From: Thermodesulfovibrionia bacterium
GTDB taxonomy: Bacteria; Nitrospirota; Thermodesulfovibrionia; JACRGW01
Direction: 5' to 3'
Assembly (NCBI GenBank): GCA_919902995.1
Contig: CAKKSD010000017.1
Location: 14,424-78,423 of the forward strand
DNA: 64,000 nt
Shown in pieces: positions 2,232 to 56,246 of the stretch; position 1 is the stretch's first letter; every line of letters begins with the position of its first letter. The notes below the pieces were generated by a model. That model did no database searches and had not been told where the DNA came from. It saw only the letters and a list, made by a program, of their open reading frames with translations. Both the position numbers and the translations under genes were made by a program.

Positions 2232-2765
2232 CTATCTTTTCTTTCTCAGAAGCATAGCCAGCCCTGTCAATCCCCCAAAGGCGAGGCCGAAGGCGAGGGC
2301 AGAGCGCCAGTCAAAAAGTGTCTTCACATCTCCTTCAACGCTATTCGCTATCATTATGCCAGCGAGGGATTTATTGGTTTTTATCTTATTTGCAGCCATA
2401 AAAAAAGCACCTCCCTGTTCTACCTCTATCTCTTCCCTTGCGAGCATTATCTGGGCGCCACCTAACTGGATATTTGCCTTTGTTGTGGCTATAAGACCAG
2501 CACCACCCTGGTTTATACTGATATCCTTTGCCCTCATGAGAAAGGAGCCTGCCTGTTTCAGATCTATCCTGTTTCCGTCTATGGAAAAGACAAGACCCTG
2601 AGTAACTTCGACATGGTTTCCTTCGATAGACCTGGCACTTGACTGGTCCATAGTCACATTCTCCGCCTCTATAATCTCTACTCTCTCTTGATTAATCTCC
2701 ACTGTTTGGGCTGAGCTCTCATCGGCATCCTCTTTATCTAATTTTACCTTTGCCTCTTTTTTCAT
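2232..2765 (-). CDS. Hypothetical tail-anchored beta-solenoid-like repeat protein
   Basis: 177 aa with six to seven repeats of about 16 residues (KDISINQGGAGLIATT / KANIQLGGAQIMLAR / EEIEVEQGGAFFMAAN ...). The C-terminus is a single hydrophobic helix plus RKKR. Its ATG overlaps the valS stop (ATGA). Confidence 0.6.
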   Translation of the reverse strand: MKKEAKVKLDKEDADESSAQTVEINQERVEIIEAENVTMDQSSARSIEGNHVEVTQGLVFSIDGNRIDLKQAGSFLMRAKDISINQGGAGLIATTKANIQLGGAQIMLAREEIEVEQGGAFFMAANKIKTNKSLAGIMIANSVEGDVKTLFDWRSALAFGLAFGGLTGLAMLLRKKR

Positions 2766-35840: not shown

Positions 35841-37193
35841 TTAAATCACCGGCAGTCTTGCCAGCGCCTCCTTTATCTTAGTTTCAGGATATTTAAAATC
35901 CTCGAGCTTCCCTGACTGATAGGCCTCATAGGCGCCAAGATCAAGAAGTCCATGTCCGCTCATATTAAAGAAGATCGTCTTCTGTTCCTTTGCCTCCCTG
36001 CATTTTATGGCTTCATCAATTACTGCCCTGATCGCATGGGCTGTCTCCGGTGCGGGGATTATGCCTTCAGCCCTCGCGAATGTTATTGCTGCCTCAAAGA
36101 CAGGGAGTTGGGAATATGCCTTTGCCTCTATGATCCCGTCATTGTAGAGCTGGCATATGATCGGCGCATCACCATGATACCTTAACCCACCTGCATGGAT
36201 AGGAGGGGGAATGAAATCATGCCCCAATGTATACATCATAAGAAGCGGAGTGAGCTGGGCAGTATCTCCGAAGTCATACCTGAACTCCCCTTTCGTGAGT
36301 GTCGGGCATGATTCTGGCTCTACTGCAATAACCCTTAAATCCTTTCCATTGATCTTATCTCTTACAAATGGAAAACTTACACCACTGAGGTTACTCCCTC
36401 CACCGCAGCATCCGATGATCACATTAGGATAATCACCGATTTTTTCGAACTGCATTTGTGCCTCAAGCCCAATTATGGTCTGGTGGAGAAGAACATGGTT
36501 TAAAACAGATCCGAGGGAGTAGTTTGTATCAGTATGGGTAGCTGCATCTTCAACGCCCTCGCTAATTGCAAGACCAAGACTCCCGGGATTATCCGGATAT
36601 ACCTCGAGGGCCTTTCTCCCTGCATTAGTCTCATTGCTCGGGCTTGGCAGAACCCTTGCCCCCCAGGTCTCCATTGCTATCCGTCTATATGGTTTCTGAT
36701 TATAACTTACCTTTACCATATATACCGTAACATCAAGCCCGAAAAGGGCACCTGCCAGTGCAAGGGCGCTTCCCCACTGACCTGCTCCTGTCTCTGTTGC
36801 TATCCTCTTCATGCCAGCCTTCTTATTGTAATAGGCCTGGGCAACAGCGGTATTAGGTTTGTGGCTTCCTGCAGGGCTTATCCCCTCGTCCTTATAATAG
36901 ATCTTCGCAGGGGTTTTGAGGACTTCCTCTAATCTTCTCGCCCTGTGAAGGGGTGTTGGCCTCCATAGCGAATAGATCTTGATCACATCTTCAGGTATCT
37001 CAATAAATCTCTCCATACTCACTTCCTGCTCAATCAATGCCATCGGAAATATGGGAGTGAGGGCATCAGGTCCGATTGGTTCTTTTGTGGCTGGATTGAG
37101 TGGCGGCTTCGGAGGATTCGGCATATCAGGCAGAATATTGTACCACTTCTTCGGTATTTCCTTTTCAGGGAGTACTACTTTCATCACTTCCAT
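35841..37193 (-). CDS. trpB2: TrpB2-type tryptophan synthase beta-like protein
   Basis: 450 aa with the long N-terminal extension ([20 protein letters not shown]) and SHKPNT PLP-Lys motif typical of the TrpB2 clade. Confidence 0.88.
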
Positions 37194-37209: not shown

Positions 37210-37300
37210 GAAGTAGTTAAGTAGTTAGTAGCAAGTAGTTAAGGATAAAAAATAAATTATTTTCCCCTAACTACTGACTACTTTCTACTTGCTACTATTT
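37210..37300. repeat. Period-7/8 stutter repeat forming a long imperfect hairpin (trpC-trpB2 spacer)
   Basis: agtagtta agtagtt agtagca agtagtt aagg ... cctaactact gactact ttctact tgctact. Confidence 0.75.
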
Positions 37301-38103
37301 TTTAACAGTTCCTCGACCTTCTTACCTATATCCTTTGCTTCCATAAATGCTGTTCCAATTAGGATAGCATCCACCCTTTCTTTTTCAAGCCTCTCCACAT
37401 CACCCCTTTCTTTTATACCACTTTCACTAACAACTATCTTCTCCTCAGGTATATCCTTTATAATATTAAAGGTTGTTTCTATATCAACCTTTAATGTATC
37501 GAGGCTCCTGTTATTAATCCCTATAATCTCTGCATCTACCGTAAGGGACTTTTCAAGGTCCTGCAGGTTGTGTACCTCAACAAGAGAATCCATGCCGAGT
37601 TCTGCTGCCAGACCCATAAAATCTTCTGTCTGTGACCTTTCGAGAATAGACGCTATCAAAAGGATCGCATCTGCCCCATGTAACCTTGACTCAAAGATCT
37701 GGTATGTGTCAAAGATGAAATCCTTTCTGAGAATGGGGAGGGAAACCTTCTTCCTTACAGTCCTCAGGTCTGAAAGACTCCCGTAAAAGAAATCGCTCTC
37801 AGTAAGAACAGAGATAGCAGATGCTCCCTTTTCTTCATAGGTCAATGCAATTCTTTCAGGATCAAAATCCTCCATGATGATACCTTTTGATGGTGATCCC
37901 TTTTTTATCTCTGCAATAAGTTTTAAAGCCTCACCCTTCTTTCTCTTAATTGCTTTCTTAAAATCTCTGGTTTCAGAGAGGTCTTTTACCTTTTCCTTAA
38001 TATCACTCAGCGGGATTTCTATTTTGACCTCCTTTAACTTCTCCCTTTTCCTTTTTACTATTTCGTCGAGAATCATGGTCATTTTAAAATTACCATTTAG
38101 CAT
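37285..38103 (-). CDS. trpC: Indole-3-glycerol phosphate synthase
   Basis: ILDEIV, AEIKKGSPSKG and NNRSL motifs. The true start may be the internal ATG at 38082 or 38076. Confidence 0.92.
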   Translation of the reverse strand: MLNGNFKMTMILDEIVKRKREKLKEVKIEIPLSDIKEKVKDLSETRDFKKAIKRKKGEALKLIAEIKKGSPSKGIIMEDFDPERIALTYEEKGASAISVLTESDFFYGSLSDLRTVRKKVSLPILRKDFIFDTYQIFESRLHGADAILLIASILERSQTEDFMGLAAELGMDSLVEVHNLQDLEKSLTVDAEIIGINNRSLDTLKVDIETTFNIIKDIPEEKIVVSESGIKERGDVERLEKERVDAILIGTAFMEAKDIGKKVEELLKNSSK

Positions 38104-38152: not shown

Positions 38153-39166
38153 TCATCTCAGGCCACTGGCTACTTTCTTTATCCCCTCAAGTTTCCTGAG
38201 TGCTGCACCTGAATCTATTGACCTTTCTGCAATCGCAATCCCTTCTTTTAGATCCTTTGCCTTTCCAGAAGCAACAATCGCGGCTGAGGCATTGAGTAAT
38301 ACTATATCCCTCTTAGGACCCTTTTCCCCTTTCAGTATATTTATTGTGATTTCAGCGTTTTCCTTAGATTCACCTCCGAGGAGGTCTTCGATACTTCCAG
38401 TTTTGATTCCGAAATCTGAAGGTTCTATGAAGTAATTCTCGACTTTTCCGCCCTTAAGCTCCGAGACCTTTGTCTTTCCTGTAATTGTGATCTCATCAAG
38501 ACCGTCTTCACCATGTACGACAAAGGCGTGGATACATCCAAGATTACCGAGGACCTTGGCCATTGTCTCTGTAAGGTCAGATGAGTAAACACCGAGTACC
38601 TGGTATTTAGCACCTGCAGGATTTGTTAATGGACCCAGGATATTAAATACAGTCCTTATACCTATTTCCCTTCTCGGTCCCAGGGCATACTTCATCGCTC
38701 CGTGAAAAAAAGGGGCGAAGAGGAAACCGAAGCCGACTTCAATAAGGGATTTCTCAATCTTCTCAGGGGGGAGTTCGATATTCACCCCAAGTGCCTGAAG
38801 GACATCTGCACTGCCTGACTTGCTCGATACAGAACGGTTTCCGTGTTTTGCAACAGGGATACCTGCACCCGATACAATAAAGGCTGCTGTTGTGGATATG
38901 TTAAATGTATGTGCCATATCTCCGCCAGTCCCACATGTATCAACAGTCCCTGCAGGTGCCTTTATTGATAATGCTTTCTCCCTCATCACCTTTGCTGCAC
39001 CTGTGATCTCATCTATTGTCTCTCCTTTTAACCTCAGGGCTGTAAGGAATGCCCCTATCTGGGCATCTGTTGCCTTTCCCTCCATAATCTCCCTCATAGC
39101 CTCTGCCATCTCTGCTTCTGAGAGGTCGATCTTTTCTATAAGGATAGAAATCGCCTCTTTGATCAT
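38153..39166 (-). CDS. trpD: Anthranilate phosphoribosyltransferase
   Basis: 337 aa with DTCGTGGD and KHGNRS motifs. Confidence 0.95.
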
Positions 39167-39732
39167 ACCTTTGGCCTCAGGAAGTTCCTCAATAAATCCT
39201 TACCTACCTTTGTGAGAATCGATTCAGGATGGAACTGAACACCTTCAACGATAAACTCCTTATGCCTTACTCCCATGATCTCACCTTCCTTTGTCTCCGC
39301 AGTGATCTCAAGACAGGAGGGTATAGTCTCCCTTTTAATGATCAAAGAATGGTATCTTGTTGCTTCGAAAGGATTGGGAAGACCAATAAAGATCGTTTTA
39401 CCGTTATGGTATATCATGGAGGTCTTTCCATGCATCAGTCTATCAGCCCTTATCACATCTCCACCGTATGCTGCACCGATAGCCTGATGTCCGAGGCACA
39501 CACCGAGAATAGGTATCCGTCCGGAGAAATTCTTTATCAGGTCGATAGATATCCCTGCCTCTTTCGGTGTACAGGGTCCAGGTGAGATCACAATCCTGTC
39601 AGGATTAAGTATTTCTATTTCTTTAAGGGTTAGCTTATCATTCCTGTATACTCTGAGGTCTTCTCCAAGTTCGCCTAAATACTGGACAAGGTTATAAGTG
39701 AATGAATCGTAATTATCAATCATTAATAACAT
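39163..39732 (-). CDS. trpG: Anthranilate synthase component II (glutamine amidotransferase)
   Basis: 189 aa with GVCLGHQ (catalytic Cys) and HPES motifs. Confidence 0.95.
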
Positions 39733-39744
39733 TTTAACACCTTA

Positions 39745-40764
39745 CTATTTATGATTAAGATGGAAAGTACTATGTCTTCTTATAGTCATTGGAAACAATA
39801 GACTGCATTGTTCTTCTATAATTATCTTGGGTTTTATCTTTTTTATCTTTTTATCCCGCAACTTAATTTCTCTCTTTTCTAATTCAAATGGGTCATGTGG
39901 AATAGTAAAAGCTTCTTTAATTTTATCCCAATCCTTTGATCTTACGGTGGTCACATTATCCAGAAAAATACTAACATAACATCCATTTATCATTGTCGAT
40001 TCTGTTTCTGCTAACTTTCTATTTGTTATTTCGACATACTTAGGGTCAATATCAATACCTATAAACTTCCTTCCTAATCTCTTAGCAGCAATTGCAGTTG
40101 TTCCAGTGCCTATAAATGGGTCAAGGACAATATCTCCTTCATCTGTACTCATAATCAGTAATCTTTCAAGAAGATGCACAGGTAACTGGCATGGATGTTC
40201 ATCTCTTCTTTTTTTGTGTCTTATTCTATGAATATCTGTCCATACATCTGGGATAATAGGACCGAATTTATGCATCTGGTCTTTCTTTCCACCGTAATCT
40301 TTCAAAATATATCCACATGCCCTGCACCGCTTATGCAACATTCTTATATCATGAAATTTATAATCTTTATCTGACTTCACATAATAAAGCACTCCATAAT
40401 GATTTGGCAAGAGTGTCTTTCCCAGAGGTGAACCCATTGCATCCCATGCTATCCAATGCCGGAATATAGCAACTTCATTAAGGTAAGATCCAAAATAAAT
40501 TAACCACTTTGGGATATTATGAACAAAGATTGTCCCTGTTGGCTTAGTGATGCGAACCATTTCGTAAAGCCACTCTTTGCACCATGAAAGATATTTCTCA
40601 ACCTCATGTTTATCATAGTAGCTGTTGTATTTCTTTTTTAGATTAAACGGTGGGTCAGCAAATGTAACATCCACACTGCCATCAGGGATTTTTCTCATAA
40701 TCTCCAGACAATTTCCTATCGCAACCTTGTTTATTAAACTATCAAAATATTTTCTATTTTGCAT
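39745..40764 (-). CDS. Beta-class DNA methyltransferase (N6-adenine or N4-cytosine)
   Basis: Motif IV FADPPFN is N-terminal and motif I LDPFIGTGTT is C-terminal (the N6_N4_Mtase layout). The ATG at 40764 overlaps the stop of the upstream ORF by 11 nt. Confidence 0.85.
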   Translation of the reverse strand: MQNRKYFDSLINKVAIGNCLEIMRKIPDGSVDVTFADPPFNLKKKYNSYYDKHEVEKYLSWCKEWLYEMVRITKPTGTIFVHNIPKWLIYFGSYLNEVAIFRHWIAWDAMGSPLGKTLLPNHYGVLYYVKSDKDYKFHDIRMLHKRCRACGYILKDYGGKKDQMHKFGPIIPDVWTDIHRIRHKKRRDEHPCQLPVHLLERLLIMSTDEGDIVLDPFIGTGTTAIAAKRLGRKFIGIDIDPKYVEITNRKLAETESTMINGCYVSIFLDNVTTVRSKDWDKIKEAFTIPHDPFELEKREIKLRDKKIKKIKPKIIIEEQCSLLFPMTIRRHSTFHLNHK

Positions 40765-41728
40765 GGAAAGTCTCCGATAAGAGATTCTTAAACCTTTCAA
40801 GTTCATCCTTGCCAAATGTAAAAACCAAATCATAAGCTTCTACCATCCGCTTTAAATCGCCCCTTCTTACATACCATCCAATTCCATCAACAAAACCGAC
40901 AAAAACTACATTTGGATAATTTTTCTTCAAATAATCAGCTACCGTCTTTTCTGTCTTTGCCTTATCCCCCATTCCCGAGGCAGTAGTTACCGAATACGAA
41001 CATTCAATTATTATCTTTGGCGATGTCTTATTGGGGATTATGAAATCCATTGTTCTTGGGATATTGCCTGCTTTTGGAATTCTGAATTTGCCTTTCTCAA
41101 AGCCTAACTTATAATCTGTCAGGATTTGTTCGATGACAACCTCAGGATTTCCTCCTTTAGCAGCCTTATATGAACCTTTTGTCTTATATCTTATTATGGT
41201 ATCCACCAGAGACTCAACAGAGAATCTAAACTTATTTATATCAAGTTTCTTAAACTCAAAAAGTGGAAGAACCCTTTTTATTACTGGAACTGTAGGTCCC
41301 TTAAAAAACAGATTTACAATGCCTTCGGCAAACTTTTTATTTGCTTTAATAATATATTTTATCTTATCTAAACCCCATTCAGTCTTAAAATCCTCAGTAG
41401 GCCATGAATCCTTATTAACAAGGCTTGATAAGGTTTTGTCTTCTGTAGCCCTAATAAATGTTACCAGCCTCTGTAAGCTTTCCTTTGAAAAACCAGTTAC
41501 AGTCAAAATGGCATCAAGTCCATTTTCAACCTCTGTAATATGTTCAAATAAAATAGTCTCTTTTAACCCTTCTCTTTCTATTCTATTTCTTAGAAGAAAA
41601 ATATTCTGTGCAACCGAAGAGATATGCCCCTCATAATATTCTTCAAACTCTTCATTGTAGAAATAAAAGGTGTTCTTAGATATTACAGTATTAAATTTTT
41701 CATCTAATGATGGGTAACGTTTCGTCAT
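40754..41728 (-). CDS. Candidate type II restriction endonuclease (DpnII/MboI-like, tentative)
   Basis: 324 aa lying between two methyltransferase genes. The C-terminal segment is MDFIIPN-x8-IIIECSYS...GDKAKTE...VDGIGWY (PD-(D/E)xK-like). The resemblance to the DpnII family is recalled from memory and not verified. Confidence 0.5.
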   Translation of the reverse strand: MTKRYPSLDEKFNTVISKNTFYFYNEEFEEYYEGHISSVAQNIFLLRNRIEREGLKETILFEHITEVENGLDAILTVTGFSKESLQRLVTFIRATEDKTLSSLVNKDSWPTEDFKTEWGLDKIKYIIKANKKFAEGIVNLFFKGPTVPVIKRVLPLFEFKKLDINKFRFSVESLVDTIIRYKTKGSYKAAKGGNPEVVIEQILTDYKLGFEKGKFRIPKAGNIPRTMDFIIPNKTSPKIIIECSYSVTTASGMGDKAKTEKTVADYLKKNYPNVVFVGFVDGIGWYVRRGDLKRMVEAYDLVFTFGKDELERFKNLLSETFHAK

Positions 41729-42996
41729 TTCGTTTTCCTCAAAAACAATATATATTCATCCTTCATCGTATTTTGTATTCCTTTAATTGGTTTTACAATT
41801 TTTTGGTCAAGTGCAAATCCGTGTTTCAATGCCATTTCTTCAACTTTGGTTTCCAGCCTTATTCCGCCTGTCTGAACATCATTTGAGCCGATTATAATCA
41901 CTGCGTATTTACCAGCTTTTAAAACCCGTGCCATTTCTGATAAGACTCTGTCCATATCCTGAAAGTAATTGGCGAGTTTCTCTTTTTTGGTTTTCCCTTT
42001 TAAACCGATCATTTCGTCTTTAAGTTCATGCACATTATACCCTAAATATTCTAATTGGGGTCTATCATTTTCAGCGTAATCAATTGCAAATGAATAGGGC
42101 GGTGAGGTGATAATAGCATCTACTGAGTTGTCTTCTAAAGGAATATTTTTGGCATCACCAACTTTAAACTCTGCCTTTCCAAGATTCAGATTAAGTTTTT
42201 CTCTAGCCTGAATAAATGAATTTATCTGCCCCACATATCTTTTGAGCACTGACGGAAAAAGCACATCTATACTTTTTGCGCATCTCCTCGCATAGCCCAT
42301 AGCATCTAAGAAGGCAAGGAGGGTTATTGCTTTCTCTGTTTCGTAACTGCCATTATAAGAGAAGGTGCGAGGTAATCTATCACTTTTTATTAAAGTCTTA
42401 TAATTTTTCTGCATGTTGCCTGATACTAAAGCTAATAGAGAACAATCAACCTTTAATGCTTCATATTTGACTTTGCTCATTAAGGCGCAAAATGGACTTT
42501 TTTCAATTCCGATGGAATCAATTCCAATAATACTTGCTTCTACATTTAAAGTACCGCTCCCGCACATGGGGTCAAGAACGACCTCTCCAGATTTAACACC
42601 CAATATATTCAGCAGGCCCTTAATAAGTTGTGGATGAAATTTCCCTCTATATGGGAAAAGCCCATGTGTAGCGTAACCTGTGGAAAAATTACCTTCTCTA
42701 AAATATGATTTTGTTATTTCTGATCGCCCTTCCCAGATTAGCGGGCTGTTATTAGAGCATATAATGTAATGCTGTGCGGGTATTCCATCTACACTTTTAA
42801 AAAATGCCCCTCTATCAATGATTTCATATTTGGCAAGAAACTTATATTCATAAAATGCTAATTCTAATTCGAAAAGTTCAGAAGTATTTGGTAGTAGTTC
42901 ATACTCAGATGGCAATAGAAATGTAGTTATTTTCGGTAAGTTTTTTATTTGGGTAATATGTTGTTTTTGGTCAAAAACCTCTTTTATCACTGCCAT
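41725..42996 (-). CDS. DNA methyltransferase with motif I before motif IV (SPPY type)
   Basis: VLDPMCGSGT (motif I) is followed about 150 aa later by AIITSPPYSFAIDY (motif IV). It overlaps the downstream ORF by 4 nt. Confidence 0.75.
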   Translation of the reverse strand: MAVIKEVFDQKQHITQIKNLPKITTFLLPSEYELLPNTSELFELELAFYEYKFLAKYEIIDRGAFFKSVDGIPAQHYIICSNNSPLIWEGRSEITKSYFREGNFSTGYATHGLFPYRGKFHPQLIKGLLNILGVKSGEVVLDPMCGSGTLNVEASIIGIDSIGIEKSPFCALMSKVKYEALKVDCSLLALVSGNMQKNYKTLIKSDRLPRTFSYNGSYETEKAITLLAFLDAMGYARRCAKSIDVLFPSVLKRYVGQINSFIQAREKLNLNLGKAEFKVGDAKNIPLEDNSVDAIITSPPYSFAIDYAENDRPQLEYLGYNVHELKDEMIGLKGKTKKEKLANYFQDMDRVLSEMARVLKAGKYAVIIIGSNDVQTGGIRLETKVEEMALKHGFALDQKIVKPIKGIQNTMKDEYILFLRKTK

Positions 42997-43023
42997 ACTA
43001 TCTAAACCTGTTATCCTCTTAAT

Positions 43024-44598
43024 TCAGTTTAATCCTTCCTCTGCCATCTCTATTGCTTTTAACATTCCCTTTGCCTTATTCACAGTCTCATAATATTCCC
43101 TCTCAGGCACAGAATCTGCCACTATGCCTGCACCTGCCTGAATATAGGCCTTGCTGTCCTTTACTATTATTGTCCTTATCGTAATGCAGGTGTCCATATT
43201 GCCTGAGAAACTAAAATATCCAACAGCCCCTGCATAGGGTCCCCTTCTTGTAGGTTCGAGTTCTTCGATAATCTCCATTGCCCTTATCTTTGGAGCACCT
43301 GATACGGTTCCTGCTGGGAAACATGCCCTCAGTACATCATAGGAATCTTTGCCTTCAGCAAGTATTCCTTCGACATCAGAGACGATATGCATGACATGGG
43401 AGTACCTTTCTACAACCATGAGTTCCTTCATCCTGACCGAACCGATCTCTGATACCCTGCCGAGGTCGTTCCTTCCGAGGTCAACAAGCATTATATGCTC
43501 TGCCATTTCCTTAGGGTCCTTCAGAAGTTCTTCCTCCAGGACTTTATCTTCTTCCTCTGTAGATCCCCTCGTTCTTGTTCCGGCTATTGGTCTTTCTTCT
43601 AATACCTTTCCCTCTAATCTTACAAGAATCTCAGGAGAAGAGCCTATCATCGAAGTATTACCGAATCTGAGAAAATACATATAGGGAGAAGGGTTTATAA
43701 CCCTCAGAGCCCTGTAAATCTCAAAGGATGAAAAAGTTATTTCTTTTTCGAATCTCTGAGAAAGTACAACCTGTATTATATCACCAGAGGCTATATATTC
43801 CTTTGCACGTTTCACCATATTCTCGAAGTCTTCTTTTGTGAGATTAGACTCAATTTCTACCACAGGATCCATGATGCCTGATCCATGATGACTGATGTTT
43901 GTATCCTGCATCGTGTATCGGGCATCTTGCATCTTGCCCCTTGAACCCTTGACCCCTTGAATCCTGTTCGTTTTAAGTCTTTCTATAATATTTACGATCT
44001 TTTCCTTTGCATCTTCGTATGCCTTTTCTATAACTTGTCCTGAACTTGATTCGGGATCTCCATCATGAATATGAGCATTCGATACAACCTTTATCTTCTG
44101 TGCAAGGCTATCAAAGATAAGGAGGGTATCTGTTACCATAAAAAGAAGATCTGGAAGTCCGAGATCTTCCCTGCCGGAGTCGGGGATCTTCTCAAAAAAA
44201 CGGACTACATCATATCCGAGGTAACCTACAGCACCTCCAAAGAACCTCGGTAACCCGGCGATATTGACAGGTCTGTACCGTTCCATCTCCTTTTTTATTA
44301 CTTCTAATGGGTCCTTATTAAAAGGAAAAGTCTCTTTCTTTCCATCCCTTGTAATCTCTATATTATCCCCTTTTCCTTTTATGACTACTGAAGGGTTACT
44401 TCCAAGAAAGGAGTATCGTGCCCATTTTTCACCTCCCACAACGCTCTCAAGTAGATATGAATACTTGCCATCGTCTATCTTGAGGAAGGCAGAGACAGGG
44501 GTCTCCATATCGGCAAGGATTTCCTTATAAACAGGGATCAGATTCCCTTCCCTTGCCTTCTCTTTAAAGTCTTCTAAACTCGGAAAAAACATAGTCAT
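43024..44598 (-). CDS. trpE: Anthranilate synthase component I
   Basis: 524 aa with [24 protein letters not shown] and GAGIVADS motifs. Confidence 0.95.
43866..43966. repeat. Period-7 stutter repeat inserted in frame in the trpE inter-domain linker
   Basis: ...tgtatcc tgcatcg tgtatcg ggcatct tgcatct tgcccct tgaaccct tgacccct tgaatcc. It encodes [31 protein letters not shown]. Confidence 0.75.
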
Positions 44599-44635
44599 TT
44601 ATACCATATCCTTAGGTGTTAATCAAATCTAAAGT

Positions 44636-45325: not shown

Positions 45326-45417
45326 GAATGATTTTTAAATCATTCCTGTCATTCCCGCGGAAGCGGGAATCCAGAAAGTATCAAGAAATACTGGACTCCT
45401 GCTTCCGCAGGAGTGAC
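45326..45417. repeat. Family B hairpin modules
   Basis: gaatgatttttaaatcattc, gtcattcccgcggaagcgggaatccag and ctggactcctgcttccgcaggagtgac. Confidence 0.8.
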
Positions 45418-45453: not shown

Positions 45454-46353
45454 TTAAATTATGAGATCTGCCAAAGTTGCCAGAAAAACCACAACACTAA
45501 TATACCCGTTCATATTGAAGAAGGCTATATCAAGTTTTGTGAGGTCGTTCTCCTTCACAAGGGAATGCTCCCTTATAAACAGGCCTGTAATTGCTGCTAA
45601 CCCTATCAGGTAAATATAACCTAAATTTAATAAAGGATAGAGGGAAAAGAGCAAGAGTACTGTAATAAGATGGGAGAACCTCGATATATAGAGAGATTTC
45701 TTTATGCCGAGCTTTTGAGGAATAGATTTTAGGCCTGTTTTTCTATCAAAGTCTATATCCTCAAGGGCATAGAGTATATCAAAACCTATAAGCCAGAAGA
45801 CAACAGCACTACCAAGTAAGAGTGCCGGTAATTCTATAACACCTTTAACCCCGACCCATGCTCCGATAGGTGCGAGGCTTAAGGAAAGGCCGAGGAAAAA
45901 ATGTGAGAGGATTGTGAACCTCTTTGTGTATGAATAGAAAAAGACTATGAAGAGGGCGAGAGGCGAGAGTTTAAAGGCAAGGGGATTTAACCTCGAGGTG
46001 GCAAATATAAATATGGTGCCTGTGAGGATTATGAATATCATCACCTGAAGAGGCGTGAGAATTCCCTTTGGGAGTGCTCTGTCCTTAGTCCTCGGGTTAA
46101 GGGCATCGAACCTCCAGTCAGCAAGCCTGTTAAAACTCATTGCGGCAGATCTCGCCCCAACCATCGCAACTGTTATCCAGAAAATTTTATCCAATGAAGG
46201 GATCTTCTTTTCTGCAAGGATAGCACCTATAAAGGCGAAAGGCAGGGCAAAGACGGTGTGGGGGAATTTTATCATCTCGATGACGATTCTGATTTTTTCG
46301 ATAATCTTTCTCAAGTTTAAACCCTCTGGAAAGGAGATATCATTCAAAGCCAT
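45454..46353 (-). CDS. ubiA: UbiA-family aromatic prenyltransferase (MqnP/4-hydroxybenzoate polyprenyltransferase-like)
   Basis: 299 aa, polytopic, with an NRLADWRFD Asp-rich motif. Confidence 0.88.
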   Translation of the reverse strand: MALNDISFPEGLNLRKIIEKIRIVIEMIKFPHTVFALPFAFIGAILAEKKIPSLDKIFWITVAMVGARSAAMSFNRLADWRFDALNPRTKDRALPKGILTPLQVMIFIILTGTIFIFATSRLNPLAFKLSPLALFIVFFYSYTKRFTILSHFFLGLSLSLAPIGAWVGVKGVIELPALLLGSAVVFWLIGFDILYALEDIDFDRKTGLKSIPQKLGIKKSLYISRFSHLITVLLLFSLYPLLNLGYIYLIGLAAITGLFIREHSLVKENDLTKLDIAFFNMNGYISVVVFLATLADLII

Positions 46354-51157: not shown

Positions 51158-51439
51158 ATGGGGAAACAGGTCAGTGCAACAGAGGCTGTCAGGAAGTTTT
51201 CTGAGATCCTTAATTCGATAAAATATAGGGGAGATCACTACACAATTATAAGGGGCGGCAAGCCCGTGGCTTCCATCTCGCCTGTAGAGACAGAAACCAG
51301 CGGAAGAACGCTTGGCGACCTGAAAGAGTTGTTAAAAAAACTTCCAAGCCTCGGAGATGAATCTAAAAGATTTGAAAAGGATTTAAAAGAGATAAGAAGA
51401 CAACAGCCTTCTATGCCCGGGAAAGATAAATGGGCTTGA
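51158..51439 (+). CDS. Phd/YefM-type antitoxin
   Basis: 93 aa. The N-terminal VSATEAVRKFSEILNSI...YTIIRGGKPVA motif is typical of Phd/YefM. It overlaps the downstream PIN gene by 10 nt. Confidence 0.75.
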   Translation: MGKQVSATEAVRKFSEILNSIKYRGDHYTIIRGGKPVASISPVETETSGRTLGDLKELLKKLPSLGDESKRFEKDLKEIRRQQPSMPGKDKWA

Positions 51440-51837
51440 TATTTGATACAAGCGTTCTCATAGCAATAGAACGAATATCTTCAAATATTGAAGGTTTTAT
51501 TAAGGAGCGTGAAGGTGAACCATTTGGTATAAGTGTGATTTCAGTTTCTGAGCTTCTACATGGTGTGCATAGGGCTGACACAGAAAAAAGGAGACTTAAA
51601 AGGGAATCTTATATAGAAAGGATTATAGAAACTTTTCCTATCTATTCTTTCGATCTCAATGCCTCAAGAATTTATGCAAGAATCTGGGCGACTCTCGCAA
51701 AAAAGGGGATCACTATAGGCGCTCATGACCTTATGATTGCCTCTACGGCTATCTCATTGGGCTTTGCCGTTCTTACATCTGATATAAGGGATTACGAAAA
51801 GATCAAGGGACTTAAGGTAGAGCAGTTTGCTGCATAA
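51430..51837 (+). CDS. vapC: PIN-domain toxin (VapC family)
   Basis: 135 aa: IFDTSVLI ... SVISVSEL ... AHDLMIAST ... TSDIRDY. Confidence 0.85.
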   Translation: MGLIFDTSVLIAIERISSNIEGFIKEREGEPFGISVISVSELLHGVHRADTEKRRLKRESYIERIIETFPIYSFDLNASRIYARIWATLAKKGITIGAHDLMIASTAISLGFAVLTSDIRDYEKIKGLKVEQFAA

Positions 51838-51863
51838 AATTAATAAAGATACACCCTCCTCTA

Positions 51864-52088
51864 TTATTTCTTTTTTGTATTCCTCTCAATATCCTTAAGC
51901 AGTCTGATTATATCCTCGTTCTGCTTAATAATTCTTTCTGCCTGTTTATAGGTCATCAAAGGCTCAGAGAAGACCGTGCTCTCCTGGCCTAATGGATTAG
52001 TCCTAACGATCATAATTGAAGGGGTATCACCAGAAACAGTAACTGCCATAAGTATAATTACTAAAACAAGAAAAATGATTATCCTCAT
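51864..52088 (-). CDS. Small secreted/membrane-anchored protein (74 aa)
   Basis: The ATG at 52088 is followed by an N-terminal hydrophobic signal (MRIIIFLVLVIILMAVTVSG). Partial copies of the gene lie at 50991..51058 and 53685..53750. Confidence 0.5.
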   Translation of the reverse strand: MRIIIFLVLVIILMAVTVSGDTPSIMIVRTNPLGQESTVFSEPLMTYKQAERIIKQNEDIIRLLKDIERNTKKK

Positions 52089-52113
52089 AGAGACCTCATA
52101 TAACGTAAAGGAA

Positions 52114-52785
52114 CTACTTTCCTTGGTATAAAACGTGAAATCTACGAGTTGCAAAATCATATTCAACTCCAAGGTTTTTAAATAGTGGCTTGTATAATCC
52201 CTTCTCCATAGCTTTAAGGACTGCAAATGGCCTCGCACTACTAATGCGTCCCATTCTGAAAATGCCCTTTTCCTGAAATTTTAATAACAGAACTAAAATA
52301 AATACTGTAGAATCGATCCAGTCGACAATCTTCGAAAAACCTATTACTCCTAAAGCATTTGTTGCTTTACGAAACGAAGATATTTTTTCACCAATATCAC
52401 ACGCATCAAGAATAAAAATTGTGCTATTCAATACATTCGAAATCTTACGCATTTCTCGACTGATGTTAATCTCGCCATCAATTGCAGTGAGTATTCTTCG
52501 ATGTTTCCTTTTATTTGCTTTTCTAATAAATTCATGCTTACCATGGGCGCTGAGAACAATAATATTTGGCCCCTTTTTATTGGCAGGAAGTAATACAAAC
52601 TGTTTGATATCTCTAATATATCTTGAGGCTAACAATGGTCTTTGAATAATATTTATCGGATCTTCATGTATATATAGGAGCGTCTCCAAAGATTGGTAAA
52701 TTTTTGCAGTTGATCTTGAATCACTAATATATTCTTTTTCGTCAGCCCAAGTAGATTCAAGAATTAATAACTTTTCAAATGCCAT
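52114..52785 (-). CDS. Minimal CHAT/caspase-like (clan CD) domain protein, tentative
   Basis: 223 aa. A beta-strand then His (NIIVLSAHGKH) and a beta-strand then Cys (TIFILDACDIGE) are spaced about 52 aa apart, followed by GVIGFSKIVDWIDS, mirroring the CHAT pattern HxxHG ... LSACxTG ... vigSLWxVxD. Confidence 0.45.
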   Translation of the reverse strand: MAFEKLLILESTWADEKEYISDSRSTAKIYQSLETLLYIHEDPINIIQRPLLASRYIRDIKQFVLLPANKKGPNIIVLSAHGKHEFIRKANKRKHRRILTAIDGEINISREMRKISNVLNSTIFILDACDIGEKISSFRKATNALGVIGFSKIVDWIDSTVFILVLLLKFQEKGIFRMGRISSARPFAVLKAMEKGLYKPLFKNLGVEYDFATRRFHVLYQGK

Positions 52786-52839
52786 ATTTCTTCGTATAGA
52801 AGTTTTTAATCTATTTTATATTTTAAAGAAGGTTTACTT

Positions 52840-53131
52840 GAGGCTACCACTATCGTTAGTTCAAAAGAATTTAATGCGTCCATTCTTATGCTCTGCTAAA
52901 TTAATCCCCTTACTGTCTTTTACTATAAACTGTGTTTTTCCAAAATATTTTTTCTGTCCTATCTGCTTTAAAAATTCCCTTTTCTCTTTATCTGAAATAG
53001 ACCTCTATGAATCATCAACATTGCAATATAAAACGCCATTTTCCACAGTCATTCTGTATTTCACTTCCAAAAGTTCTTCATTGAACAATGAAGAAGTAAT
53101 AGGTGATTGTATCCTCACTTTCATAGGCTAA
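52840..53131 (-). pseudogene. Truncated duplicate of an internal part of the 54274..55848 gene, with an in-frame stop
   Basis: About 230 nt are near-identical to 54600..54830 (ataaactgtgtttttccaaaatatt...ctgtcctatctgctttaaaaattcccttttctct...). The minus-strand reading gives ...LYCNVDDS*RSISDKEKREFLKQIGQKKYFGKTQFI... versus the intact ...LYSNVDDSWKSISDQEKREFLKQIGQKKYFGKTQFI.... Confidence 0.8.
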
Positions 53132-53139
53132 AAGAGAAA

Positions 53140-53607
53140 TTATTTTCTCAGCCTTAGCCTTAATATCTTTAGTAACTCTTTTTTCAACTCGCTCTCCGAT
53201 ATGCCCCACTTCCTGGCCATTCTTACCACTATATCCTTCTTCTTCTCAGCTAACATTATTCTCCTCTCTGCATCCCTAATCCTCTCCTTCTGATCCTCTA
53301 TCGTTTGCTCATCTACACCTCTACCTCTTATCTCCGCATTCTCTTTAACACTTCTTATTAATTCCTCACGCATCCTCTTCTGCTCTAACCAACGCCCTAA
53401 TTCGCGAATCCTGACCTTATAGGCATTGGCCAGCTTAATTCTCGCTTCTCCCTTAGTTCCATAAACCATATTTTCCTTTCTCAACGGAATTTCCAGGGAT
53501 TGCTCAAATTGCTTCAGCTCCCTCTTCTCCTCGGCTGTAAGGCTAACACCGCAACCCATAATCAATACTAATACTATCATCACTACCAGCCTTTTCCATA
53601 ATCTCAT
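53140..53607 (-). CDS. Coiled-coil lipoprotein
   Basis: The ATG at 53607 has a strong RBS (agggaggtg), a signal peptide plus lipobox (LIMGC), and charged heptad-rich remainder. Confidence 0.65.
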   Translation of the reverse strand: MRLWKRLVVMIVLVLIMGCGVSLTAEEKRELKQFEQSLEIPLRKENMVYGTKGEARIKLANAYKVRIRELGRWLEQKRMREELIRSVKENAEIRGRGVDEQTIEDQKERIRDAERRIMLAEKKKDIVVRMARKWGISESELKKELLKILRLRLRK

Positions 53608-53684
53608 TTTTCTTTCACCTCCCTTTTTAAGGTGAGAGAATAACTCCATATAGTCTTTTGATATCAATTTCTTTCTCCTATAAC

Positions 53685-53750
53685 TCTCAATATCCTTAAG
53701 CAGTCTGATTATTCCCTCGTTCTACTTAATGATTCTTCCTGTCTGCTTTC
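53685..53750 (-). pseudogene. Fragment homologous to the 3' end of the 51864..52088 small-protein gene
   Basis: ctctcaatatccttaagcagtctgattat(t/a)(c/t)cctcgttct(a/g)cttaat is shared with 51884..51935. Confidence 0.6.
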
Positions 53751-53774
53751 GAGCAAAGCGATGCAAGCGCTCCG

Positions 53775-54272
53775 TTAATAATTATCTTTAATACCGAATA
53801 TTATCAAAGCACAAACAGGTACTGGTATAGAGCCATTAATGATCCATGTATTTTTCAGAGTAGTCTTTGATTTAAGCTTCCATTCTTTACCGTCAAAAAC
53901 CCATGTATTAGATAACCTTGCTTTAGATTTTGGTTTCAGTTCCCTTCCATCCCATGTATAGGTGTTTGAAAGGGTTGCCCCTGACTTCGGTTTTAGTTCT
54001 TTACCATCCCAGACATAGGTATTTTTAAGAGTAGCCCCAGCCTTCGGTTTCAATTCCCTTCCATCGAATACCCAGGTATCCCCAAGCCTCCCACCGGCTT
54101 TTGGCTTTATCGCTTTCCCATCCCATATGTATGTATTTGAAAGAGAGGCACCAGCTTTTAACTTGATTTCCCCTATTGTAGATGCTAAAAGAGTTATTGG
54201 GGCAAGGGTAAAAAGTGTAAAAAAGATATTAAATATCTTCACGCCATTTACTAATTTTTTTATCTCTTCCAA
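53775..54272 (-). CDS. Secreted tandem-repeat protein (six 16-residue repeats)
   Basis: Repeat consensus G-A-T-L-x-N-T-[YW]-[VI]-[WF]-D-G-[KR]-E-[LW]-K-P-K, a 48-nt DNA period across about 53830..54150. The N-terminus is hydrophobic. The start is uncertain (TTG at 54272, 1 nt after the upstream stop). Confidence 0.6.
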   Translation of the reverse strand: MEEIKKLVNGVKIFNIFFTLFTLAPITLLASTIGEIKLKAGASLSNTYIWDGKAIKPKAGGRLGDTWVFDGRELKPKAGATLKNTYVWDGKELKPKSGATLSNTYTWDGRELKPKSKARLSNTWVFDGKEWKLKSKTTLKNTWIINGSIPVPVCALIIFGIKDNY

Positions 54273-54273
54273 A

Positions 54274-55848
54274 TTATTGAACTTTTATACCAGCCTGTCT
54301 CGCTTCATTCACAATTTTTTCATATTCCCGTCTTGCTTCTTCTAGAATTTTCTCTTCTTTAACCAGAAATTCTCTAAGCGATTCCTTTCTGTCTCTTGTT
54401 TCTTGTGGATTGCTCTGAGCATTTTCTAAATGCTGTCTAAAAGTTTCTATACGGTTTTCCTGATGCTTTACACTGCCATGAGCAAATTCAATTCTGCCTT
54501 GCCAGTAGTGTTCATCTCTTATAGATGGGCGATCTTTTTGTACCGGATACTTTCTAGGAAGACTGACTTGTGATTTACCTTTATCTTTAAATCCAGAGAG
54601 TTTGATGTTTCCATTCTTATATTCTGCCATATTAGTTCCAGAACTATCCTTCAATATAAACTGTGTTTTTCCAAAATATTTCTTCTGTCCTATCTGCTTT
54701 AAAAATTCCCTTTTCTCTTGATCTGAAATAGACTTCCATGAATCATCAACATTGCTGTATAAGATACCATTTTCTATAGTCATTCTGTATTTCACTCCCA
54801 AAAGTTCTTCGTTAAATAGCAACGCAGATGGGGATGACACAGATTGTGTAGATCGTAGCGGAGTTTGTTGTACAACATTTTCTTGTAACTCTACTTTAGG
54901 ATTTTCAACGGGAATCCATTTTTGTCTAATACATTCTGATAGAATAATAGATATATTATCGGCTTTTCCAATGAACGCACTCATTTCATCTTGCATTTTA
55001 TTAGATTCGGTCTCATTTTGAGCACGTAATTGACGCGTTATATAGCCACCGGGGCCATATTTTTCAGTATGTTTTGAAAACTCCTTAAAGTTTGTAATTA
55101 TGGTGGCAGTGTCCGGATTATGAAATGGTGAAGCAAATACAATTTCATTGAAAAAAATATCTCCATATTGTTGAATTAGTTTTTTAACAGCCACATATAT
55201 CACAGCATGATAGTGCAAAAGGTGCTCAGCTGTCCTTGGCCCAATAAATTTAATATATAGACTATTTGATTCTTTATTTTTATAGCTTTCACAGTATGCA
55301 ACCTCAGCCATAAAATCATAGCCAGATTCTTTTATCACATTATTAAGTAAAGTTGTTAGCTCTTCATTGGATAGTGGTAATTTGTACGAAGCTTTTAAGT
55401 TAGATCCGGTATTAACCCTTTTTTTCATCCCAATATACGATGGAATAACTATTAATAATAATAAAACAATGAGAATTCCTACGACAATGAACCAAACCTT
55501 TACCCATTTCTTTTGTTTTAATTGAAATTGTTCTACGCTATCATAATTGCCTTTCTCCCATGCCCATTGACTTCCTTTAATGCCCAACACAATATGCATG
55601 ATAAACCCTACATAAGGGAGAAAACCTAACAATCCAATCCACACCTTGTGTCCTATAGCCCAAATCGGCCCCCAGAGGAAAGCTGCCCAGTTCCACTTTT
55701 TTAGCTCAGCAGGCAAAGAGTCGTTCACATTAACCTTACTTAAACCACTACCTAACTGTGGCATACTCGATCCCAGCATACTTCCACAATGTTTGCACTT
55801 AATTGCTTCATCCTGAATCTCTTCCTGACAAAATGGACATAGTTTCAT
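54274..55848 (-). CDS. Zinc-ribbon membrane protein, large paralog (524 aa)
   Basis: N-terminal CPFCQEEIQDEAIKCKHCGS, then 2-3 TM helices, a domain of about 300 aa with no recognised motif, and a C-terminal coiled coil. RBS aaggagg. Confidence 0.75.
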   Translation of the reverse strand: MKLCPFCQEEIQDEAIKCKHCGSMLGSSMPQLGSGLSKVNVNDSLPAELKKWNWAAFLWGPIWAIGHKVWIGLLGFLPYVGFIMHIVLGIKGSQWAWEKGNYDSVEQFQLKQKKWVKVWFIVVGILIVLLLLIVIPSYIGMKKRVNTGSNLKASYKLPLSNEELTTLLNNVIKESGYDFMAEVAYCESYKNKESNSLYIKFIGPRTAEHLLHYHAVIYVAVKKLIQQYGDIFFNEIVFASPFHNPDTATIITNFKEFSKHTEKYGPGGYITRQLRAQNETESNKMQDEMSAFIGKADNISIILSECIRQKWIPVENPKVELQENVVQQTPLRSTQSVSSPSALLFNEELLGVKYRMTIENGILYSNVDDSWKSISDQEKREFLKQIGQKKYFGKTQFILKDSSGTNMAEYKNGNIKLSGFKDKGKSQVSLPRKYPVQKDRPSIRDEHYWQGRIEFAHGSVKHQENRIETFRQHLENAQSNPQETRDRKESLREFLVKEEKILEEARREYEKIVNEARQAGIKVQ

Positions 55849-55868
55849 AACAACCTCCTTTACTTATT

Positions 55869-56246
55869 TTACTTAACCAGTTGAGACAAGCCAAATAAGA
55901 ATCCGATACTTGTTAAAATGATACCTGATATAGCCATACCCCTACCCCTTTTTTGTGTTGAAACACTAACTATACCTATAACAAGTCCTACGATACTTAC
56001 AAAAATAAGACCCCCAATTAGGTCTTGGTCCCATGGTTCTGGCTCAATAAGTAGCAAAAGGCAGATAATACCTATTATCATTGATATTATAGGCAAAGCA
56101 ATAAATCCTTCTTTTTGTTTTAGATTATGGTTGACATAAACTATCTTGGGGTCAGTTTGAGTTTGAATTGAAGTTAATATAGAACCACAATACTTACACT
56201 TAATAGCTCCATCTCGTATTTCTTCCTTACAAAATAGACAAAGCAT
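55869..56246 (-). CDS. Zinc-ribbon membrane protein, small paralog (125 aa)
   Basis: CLFCKEEIRDGAIKCKYCGS plus 3 TM helices. RBS aaggaga. Confidence 0.7.
   Translation of the reverse strand: MLCLFCKEEIRDGAIKCKYCGSILTSIQTQTDPKIVYVNHNLKQKEGFIALPIISMIIGIICLLLLIEPEPWDQDLIGGLIFVSIVGLVIGIVSVSTQKRGRGMAISGIILTSIGFLFGLSQLVK

Follow-up and report, generated by a model that had tools for sequence, protein, structure and literature searches.

A predicted type II restriction-modification cassette of likely foreign origin between trpE and trpG in a groundwater Nitrospirota-like bacterium

Type II restriction-modification (R-M) systems with two methylases, R-M systems in operon-like clusters, R-M units with inverted repeats and R-M systems in integron cassettes are all kinds that have already been published. 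R-M complexes are found inserted in operon-like clusters, and R-M units can carry inverted repeats and 8-bp duplications (Furuta, Abe & Kobayashi 2010, PMC2853133). R-M systems including XbaI are found in integron cassettes, and integrons are present in Archaea (PMC10661359). Integron cassettes seldom contain promoters (PMC4889954), and integration of cassettes at genomic attG or secondary sites is attributed to Loot 2024, as cited in PMC12614218. The locus described here shares features with each of these. It lies in a 64,000-nucleotide stretch of DNA from a Thermodesulfovibrionia bacterium (assembly GCA_919902995.1, contig CAKKSD010000017.1, positions 14,424 to 78,423; hereafter the window), where a 3.25-kb unit of three genes, methyltransferase M1, nuclease R and methyltransferase M2, occupies the spacer between trpE and trpG. 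The unit is probably a foreign type II R-M system, set in the orientation of the operon and read through from the trpE side, and one of a family that would lack promoters of its own and whose complete copies have attC-like ends.

All five genes are on the minus strand. The trpE gene (anthranilate synthase component I; 43024-44598, 524 aa) adjoins the cassette on its upstream side and is intact (NCBIfam TIGR00564 trpE_most, 590 bits against a cut-off of 518; Pfam Chorismate_bind and Anth_synt_I_N). From its TGA stop, 27 nt (42997-43023, ATTAAGAGGATAACAGGTTTAGATAGT) lead to the ATG of M1, a DNA methyltransferase (41725-42996, 423 aa). M1 overlaps by 4 nt (ATGA) with R, a DpnII/BanI-like family type II restriction endonuclease (40754-41728, 324 aa), which overlaps by 11 nt with M2, a beta-class methyltransferase (39745-40764, 339 aa). 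Another ATG in the list of open reading frames (ORFs), upstream at 40833, would give M2 362 aa, but the true start is almost certainly that at 40764, because GGAG lies 8 nt ahead of it and the gene calls of the source contigs agree. Between the TAG stop of M2 and the ATG of trpG there are 12 nt (39733-39744, TAAGGTGTTAAA), which hold the trpG ribosome-binding site AAGGTG. The trpG gene (anthranilate synthase component II; 39163-39732, 189 aa) is likewise undamaged (NCBIfam NF005799, 328 bits against a cut-off of 327; Pfam GATase, 205 bits). The initial annotation had described three co-oriented, overlapping ORFs that fill the trpE-trpG gap, and had quoted the motifs VLDPMCGSGT, SPPY, MDFIIPN...IIIECSYS, FADPPF and DPFIGTGTT; the arrangement is as described and every motif is present in the translations.

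Over their overlaps with the window, eleven independent contigs from several samples show no difference from it (100% identity). The trpE/M1 junction is spanned by five of these (L001-L004 and L178; comparison sequences are cited by L number throughout), and the M2/trpG junction by nine (L001-L003, L005, L178, L204-L206 and L210), while L006 lies wholly within the cassette. An assembly chimera is ruled out, as many independent and identical contigs span both junctions.

M1 matches Pfam UPF0020 over its motif-I part (61 bits) and N6_N4_Mtase over its SPPY part (55 bits), as well as PADLOC MTase_II (116 bits). Its motif I, VLDPMCGSGT, lies about 150 residues ahead of motif IV, SPPY. Matches to solved structures in the PDB are weak, and are to Trm11/Trm14 over the motif-I region and to an N4-cytosine methyltransferase. 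M2 is a stronger match to N6_N4_Mtase (171 bits) and MTase_II (250 bits), and its motif IV, DPPF, comes before motif I, FIGTGTT. Its PDB relatives include M.MboIIA (9e-28), CcrM (4e-24), RsrI and DpnA (3.5e-15; 5hek/5hfj), with M.MboIIA in the top three behind two unnamed methyltransferases. SPPY is the motif IV of N4-cytosine enzymes and DPPF that of N6-adenine enzymes. Thus, M1 is probably N4-cytosine-specific, judged from SPPY alone, and M2 is probably N6-adenine-specific. The claim that the unit holds two methyltransferases, the third gene being of the beta class, is borne out by the N6_N4_Mtase matches.

R matches Pfam DpnII (PF04556) with 28.6 bits (cut-off 23), residues 201-305 aligning with profile positions 174-268 of 278, and BanI (PF24447) over the same region with 27 bits, slightly under the cut-off of that family. 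PADLOC REase_II is matched with an E value of 8e-7, and homologues of R are named 'DpnII family type II restriction endonuclease' in public sources. The middle ORF had been taken for a nuclease from its C-terminal core, and the DpnII match above cut-off agrees with this. R was without a match in the PDB by sequence search. With a recognized nuclease family and adjacent methyltransferases that carry motifs I and IV, the cassette is predicted to be a type II R-M system of two unlike methylases and one nuclease. Such a composition suggests either an asymmetric site, with one methylase for each strand, or a doubly methylated site. As R matches BanI almost as well as DpnII, and matches a partial profile, GATC specificity is not assumable. 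Over 61 kb of host DNA, k-mer depletion singled out no specific recognition site: CTAG, GGCC and GATC are depleted along with other 4-bp palindromes, GATC only mildly, to 0.67 of expectation.

The cassette differs in composition from its surroundings. Sliding-window GC is 0.32-0.37 in the cassette and 0.41-0.47 in the flanks, and per-gene GC is 0.34-0.36 compared with a mean of 0.418 for the 48 other ORFs of the window. GC at third codon positions (GC3) is 0.29-0.30 against a mean of 0.409 in the same ORFs (standard deviation 0.049), giving z scores of -2.2 to -2.4, which confirms an AT-richness relative to the trp flanks that had been judged by eye. Hainich groundwater is the source of the window, whose TrpE has its relatives among the Nitrospirota. 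M1, R and M2 were found in none of 80 trpE loci of other species; trpG is no further than 300 nt from trpE in 42 of the 76 of these loci that could be evaluated. The relative in L174/L175, with a TrpE 82% identical, has the same order as the window (ubiD-ubiA-ubiX-trpE-trpG-trpD-trpC-trpB) and a trpE-trpG spacer of 29 nt. Because of its non-host GC and GC3 and its absence from relatives, the cassette appears to have been acquired horizontally, as the initial annotation had proposed for an M-R-M insertion between trpE and trpG. Three outcomes named there beforehand as telling against this were a middle ORF with no nuclease relatives, a conserved position and native GC content; instead, R matches a nuclease family, the position is not conserved and the GC content is non-native.

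Could the cassette be an old, vertically inherited component of the trp operon of this lineage that relatives have lost? Its tight fit between an undamaged trpE and trpG is what such a history would give. However, this reading is hardly credible and is already contradicted: neither the other 80 trpE loci, nor the 82% relative, nor a sister haplotype 98-100% identical to the window (below) has the cassette, its GC3 is 2.2-2.4 standard deviations under the host mean, and homologues of R 85-88% identical are found in archaea and several bacterial phyla in unrelated contexts. As to other sources, a plasmid or phage origin was rejected: there is no plasmid match, and the sole phage matches are 22-26% identical.

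The cassette is polymorphic among closely related strains. From the trpG ATG (39732) downstream, five contigs (L207, L208, L209, L211 and L212) share 99.5-99.94% identity with the window; directly upstream of trpG they have palindromes resembling repetitive extragenic palindromic (REP) elements (GTCATTCCCG...CGGGAATCC) in place of M2. L177, from the sample that also gave L208, encodes a TrpE 98% identical and carries the start of the REP-like spacer after the trpE stop (palindromes at 2400-2482). The sister haplotype, as assembled from these contigs, thus appears to consist of trpE, a spacer of about 225 nt with REP-like elements, and trpG, with no R-M genes. The window itself has a single occurrence of REP-like palindromes (GTCATTCCCGC...GCGGGAATC), at 45348-45371 between ubiX and ubiA.

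The two flanks of the cassette differ in how they relate to the sister haplotype. On the right, homology restarts exactly at the trpG ATG (39732). On the left, L177 and the window form a mosaic of fully identical blocks (100%) with divergent patches between them: identity is 93% over 43374-43175 and about 88% in the final 135 nt of trpE that align, and BLAST homology is lost at 43040, 16 nt ahead of the trpE stop. The 3' end of trpE (43040-43374, minus strand), where divergence climbs sharply toward the junction, is thus a probable homologous-recombination tract. Judged from a mosaic left flank that is more divergent near the junction, together with a near-identical right flank, the cassette has probably passed from one related strain to another, carried by homologous recombination in the trp flanks, and brought some donor trpE sequence along.

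R has 2,494 homologues, the top 120 of which are 80-100% identical and come from metagenome-assembled genomes labeled Thermoplasmatales archaeon, Hydrothermarchaeota, Edwardsbacteria, Thermodesulfobacteriota and Spirochaetota. The wider R family comprises 279 representatives (50% clustering, E <= 0.001). About 90 fetched loci, which represent 76 distinct contexts, preserve the order M1-R-M2, and M1 opens the unit wherever the contig extends to it (about 70 of the examined loci). R of such units elsewhere is 75-90% identical to that of the window. At the DNA level, homology of all other copies to the window cassette is limited to 42974-39825 and never includes the trp genes; as it stops at about 39825, the last 27 or so codons of M2 have no detectable DNA homology to other copies.

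Several of the other copies also sit, co-oriented, among housekeeping genes. In a Thermoplasmatales archaeon the cassette is between nrdD and a glutaredoxin plus radical-SAM activase (nrdG). Elsewhere the pairs of genes that enclose it are an aldehyde dehydrogenase (proA-like) with a CTP_transf_like gene (nadD-like), homoserine dehydrogenase (hom) with a PALP enzyme (thrC-like), DAHP synthase with prephenate dehydrogenase, the carA amidotransferase with carB (carB directly following M2 in three loci), and a nitroreductase with rplI; it also follows leucyl-tRNA synthetase (LeuRS). Counted over distinct contexts with a crude ORF caller, the upstream neighbor is co-oriented in 32 of 43 (74%), the downstream neighbor in 43 of 52 (83%) and both in 24 of 37 (65%). 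Enrichment of co-orientation was rejected as proof, being too near the level of adjacent genes in general and obtained with too crude a caller. As co-orientation is only modestly raised, the argument is carried by the named operon cases and not by the statistic. Embedding of an R-M module in an amino-acid operon had been called unusual; it is less so, since operon-like insertion is published (PMC2853133) and this cassette family recurs in other operons.

Many relatives have a variable fourth gene precisely between M1 and R (L088/L089, L096, L098-L100, L105, L106, L115, L133, L146, L179 and others). It encodes an AbiU/AIPR-like protein (about 600 aa), an HNH-domain protein (541 aa) or an unknown protein of about 640 aa. 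A few relatives carry an insert between R and M2, and the window copy is without a fourth gene. L126 has direct repeats of 36 nt at 1006-1626 (GTTTCAATCC.CACCCAACCCGAAGG...) that resemble clustered regularly interspaced short palindromic repeats (CRISPR), at a distance of a few kb upstream from a complete copy of the cassette.

Degeneration is seen in one relative, L117 (843-1811 and 3435-4031), a decaying copy in which R is broken up into two ORFs, of 83 and 231 aa, and M2 is intact; an ORF downstream of it resembles, by eye only, a group II intron reverse transcriptase. That the window copy is itself a decaying or domesticated remnant, its nuclease inactive, its methylases orphan epigenetic enzymes and the module tolerated because it is harmless, would fit with such a relative and with the ends of the window copy, which differ from those of other copies over about 18 codons at the N-terminus of M1 and about 27 at the C-terminus of M2. 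This is quite improbable, as R is full length and keeps all 139 of 139 invariant columns in a 30-sequence alignment, and the three ORFs are intact in every contig of the cassette haplotype. Additionally, protein identity to other copies (85-90%) exceeds DNA identity (74-80%), indicating purifying selection.

The ends of many copies elsewhere are conserved, and differ from those in the window. Conservation starts at G|TTATATGAAATGGCGGTTTAAGGAG, and the M1 ATG follows after about 33 nt; further upstream the sequences are unrelated. At the 3' end of these copies, AAACCGCCACTTCATATAAC, the reverse complement of the 5' leader, stands directly after the M2 stop, followed by a stem-loop of about 62 nt and a GTTA-like motif that marks the end of conservation. 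The inner 12-bp stem covaries: among 23 distinct sequences, pairing holds in 87% of cells, compared with 28-51% at slid control positions, and compensatory changes are seen in 10 of the 12 pairs, although the alignment was fitted to the model, which favors structure. When the 3' end is joined to the 5' start of the same copy, a long hairpin forms (z -5.5 to -7). The resulting element is attC-like, about 100-130 nt long, and consists of an outer inverted repeat and the covarying inner stem; it is found in at least 15 related loci.

Examples of the element are at L094 4413-4536, L098 6649-6765, 7487-7581 and 8155-8238, L113 1883-3473, L115 1778-1838 and 6912-7028, and L126 8953-9061. Two or three elements form arrays in L098, L113, L115, L170 and L173; in L098 and L113 three elements in the same orientation are 670-840 nt apart, and in L115 and L173 elements stand on both sides of the R-M genes. 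Small genes among the arrays encode GNAT, cupin, SIR2-like and unknown proteins. These ends may tentatively be assigned to the anatomy of cassettes in integrons or in attC clusters that have no integron integrase (CALIN), by analogy, a reading that is somewhat less likely than not. L179, the closest cassette outside the window haplotype (R 90% and DNA 88% identical), is preceded by a different direct repeat of about 85 nt with GTTAAGY (1-90 and 372-470), which brackets an 81-aa ORF without a Pfam match; its layout suggests a second family of cassette-array repeats. A 15-mer of the 3' repeat was also sought in viral contigs, and this lead was dropped: its 23 matches are at the chance level, none is accompanied by cassette genes, and one is a weak profile match.

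The same ends could instead mark an R-M unit of transposon type that has terminal inverted repeats and target-site duplications and is moved by a transposase in trans. Many copies are indeed bracketed by inverted repeats of about 17-20 bp (TATATGAAATGGCGGTT and AACCGCCACTTCATATA), and R-M units with terminal repeats and 8-bp duplications have been described (PMC2853133). However, there is no direct target duplication next to the repeats in the relatives, conservation runs about 90 nt past the 3' repeat into the covarying stem-loop, and tandem arrays in the same orientation that separate unrelated small genes fit attC arrays and not transposons with terminal repeats. The window copy has neither repeat. 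A transposon-like unit is therefore improbable.

How the window cassette is transcribed is suggested by its close fit. Next after trpG come trpD (38153-39166), trpC (37285-38103) and a trpB-like gene (35841-37193), all on the minus strand. Since only 12 nt, including the ribosome-binding site, precede trpG, transcription of trpG-trpD-trpC must either traverse the cassette or start inside it. No terminator-like site was found on the minus strand over 39.7-43.0 kb, and neither junction folds into a stable hairpin compared with shuffled sequences (z 0.13 for M2/trpG and 0.32 for trpE/M1). With flanks of 27 and 12 nt, and no terminator-like site or stable hairpin at the junctions, the likeliest arrangement would be read-through that enters the cassette from trpE and continues to trpG, in line with the co-transcription presumed in the initial annotation.

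Alternatively, promoters in the 3' end of trpE or within M1 or M2 might drive the R-M genes and trpG-trpD-trpC, which would split the trp operon. AT-rich foreign DNA often creates promoters, and sigma-70-like matches are present on the minus strand at 43196-43169 (in trpE), 42139-42110 (in M1), 40856-40829 (just before M2) and 40410-40381 (in M2). Their number is that of chance, however (22 promoter-like matches in the cassette region against 24±5 expected), complete units of the family have only about 33 nt before M1, and copies elsewhere are also co-oriented straight behind host genes. Autonomous transcription is thus unlikely. The initial annotation had allowed no room for a separate promoter; this does not hold strictly, as a promoter could sit inside trpE or the cassette, where promoter-like matches are at the chance level.

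Regulation of the cassette by tryptophan supply, also suggested there, is unsupported: the 117 nt upstream of trpE contain neither a Trp-codon leader nor a T-box, and an Rfam scan of the window returned three tRNAs and no other match. No attenuator-type leader is visible at trpE. Directly upstream of trpE, at 44598-44626 (minus strand), is a sigma-70-like TTGATT-17 nt-TATAAA, the -10 box of which overlaps the annotated trpE ATG, and a second ATG lies 6 nt downstream of the annotated one. The trpE mRNA may thus be leaderless or nearly so.

Taken together, these results make probable a scheme in which a groundwater Nitrospirota-like bacterium would have acquired M1-R-M2 horizontally into its trpE-trpG spacer, where a promoter on the trpE side would drive the cassette by read-through. 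With the methylase first and the genes translationally coupled, methylation could precede cleavage. The complete family unit, with about 33 nt from its 5' boundary to the M1 ATG, would have no space for a promoter of its own, and an attC-like imperfect palindrome would form its boundary. Lacking a promoter, copies would persist where a host promoter reads in, which could account for the recurrent co-oriented residence in housekeeping operons. The window copy would have lost its attC-like ends, or never had them, and probably spread among strains by homologous recombination through the conserved trp flanks.

Several observations weigh against this scheme. The match of R to DpnII is limited to the C-terminal 95 of 278 profile positions, and an AlphaFold2 model of R from 30 homologues is poor (mean predicted local distance difference test score 61, predicted template modeling score 0.48), with no Foldseek match in the PDB at E <= 0.001; its best match, a weak one from this poor model, is BstEII (E 3e-3, TM 0.22). 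A promoter may lie within trpE or within the cassette, the match at 40410-40381 in M2 agreeing at 10 of 12 positions. Co-orientation with neighbors barely exceeds the level usual for adjacent genes. No attC-like sequence was found in the 64 kb of the window by pattern, nhmmer profile or covariance model searches, and the trpE/M1 junction is without the conserved 5' leader, only GGTTTA aligning; the mode of entry can therefore be deduced only by way of relatives. The short flanks of the relatives showed no integron integrase, and the R-box-like ATATAAC/GTTATAT of the relatives fit the attC consensus only in part.

For the family as a whole, a broader and more speculative proposal, doubtful as it stands, is that of a promoterless, integron-type defense cassette that crosses bacterial and archaeal phyla. 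It would survive best when co-oriented in the spacers of essential operons (trpE|trpG, carA|carB, hom|thrC, aroF|tyrA, nrdD|nrdG), where it would borrow a host promoter, be hard to delete without a polar effect and spread by recombination of the flanks. The window copy would be one that has been stripped of its recombination site, and the slot between M1 and R would carry further defense genes.

Other inserted genes are found in the same gene cluster and elsewhere in the window. In the 82% relative (L174, GCA_040960175.1), a HepT/MNT toxin-antitoxin pair and a DUF2283 gene lie co-oriented between ubiD and ubiA (2246-3269), a second selfish module in this cluster; ubiD and ubiA of the window overlap directly (46340-46353), with no toxin-antitoxin insert. 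Co-oriented trpG genes 0.4-4 kb from trpE are seen in 15 of 76 other species, including L045, L073, L074 and L083 (Microbulbifer), which indicates that the junction hosts other inserted genes in other lineages. The window also has a second patch of low GC3 (0.27-0.32) at 51430-56246, probably another accessory island. It contains an ORF (51430-51837) that looks, by eye only, like a PIN-domain (VapC) toxin, and unknown membrane or repeat proteins at 52114-52785, 53775-54272, 54274-55848 and 55869-56246.

The locus presents a natural case of a toxic, addictive defense module that would rely on an amino-acid operon, while the downstream trp genes would need transcription to pass through foreign DNA. 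In related groundwater samples, near-identical strains that carry or lack the cassette offer a natural comparison for methylome, transcription and phage resistance. The family pattern suggests that landing site, besides content, decides whether a defense cassette persists, and if the attC-like ends are real recombination sites, integron-type cassette mobility would be tied to the colonization of operons.

Compared with known systems, the cassette resembles DpnII, MboI and LlaDCHI in having three genes, two methylases and one nuclease, with R over the Pfam DpnII threshold and M2 a DpnA-like beta-class enzyme. However, M1 is not Dam-like (no match to PF02086/MethyltransfD12), having instead SPPY and a region around motif I that is UPF0020-like; its genes run M-R-M and not M-M-R (dpnM-dpnA-dpnB); R resembles the C-terminal third of the DpnII profile only; and M2 is nearer to M.MboIIA and CcrM than to DpnA. 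The comparison with DpnII-type cassettes made in the initial annotation thus holds for M2 and, over its C-terminal part, for R, and fails for M1 and the gene order; the unit is not a canonical DpnII cassette. The type IIS system MboII (M1.MboII for N6-methyladenine, M2.MboII for N4-methylcytosine) is similar in its two methylases with different catalytic motifs, DPPF and SPPY, but R (324 aa) has no similarity to R.MboII and no recognizable separate cleavage domain.

With the insertions reported in PMC2853133 the window copy shares an intergenic insertion point, intact flanks, the absence of a linked mobility gene and an empty site in related genomes. It differs in being without a long target duplication or inverted repeats, the window junctions showing neither of these transposon-type features, and in that a single cassette family is found in many operons across phyla. 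Integron cassettes are resembled by the relatives in their AAC/GTT cores, 5' boundary at G|TT, compensatory palindrome with a structure better conserved than its sequence, same-orientation arrays and presence in both Bacteria and Archaea. The leader before M1 is short (about 33 nt in complete copies, 27 nt in the window), and the unit may be promoterless. Against this likeness, the palindrome of the relatives is longer (an outer stem of 17-20 bp compared with a 7-bp R box, with an unpaired spacer of 3 nt plus 6-7 nt), 3.3-5 kb with three or four genes is large for a cassette, and the window copy has no attC-type palindrome, array or integrase. What goes beyond the first observation of this locus is the polymorphism of the cassette at the level of strains, the habit of its family of residing in housekeeping operons, and the attC-like ends of the complete copies.

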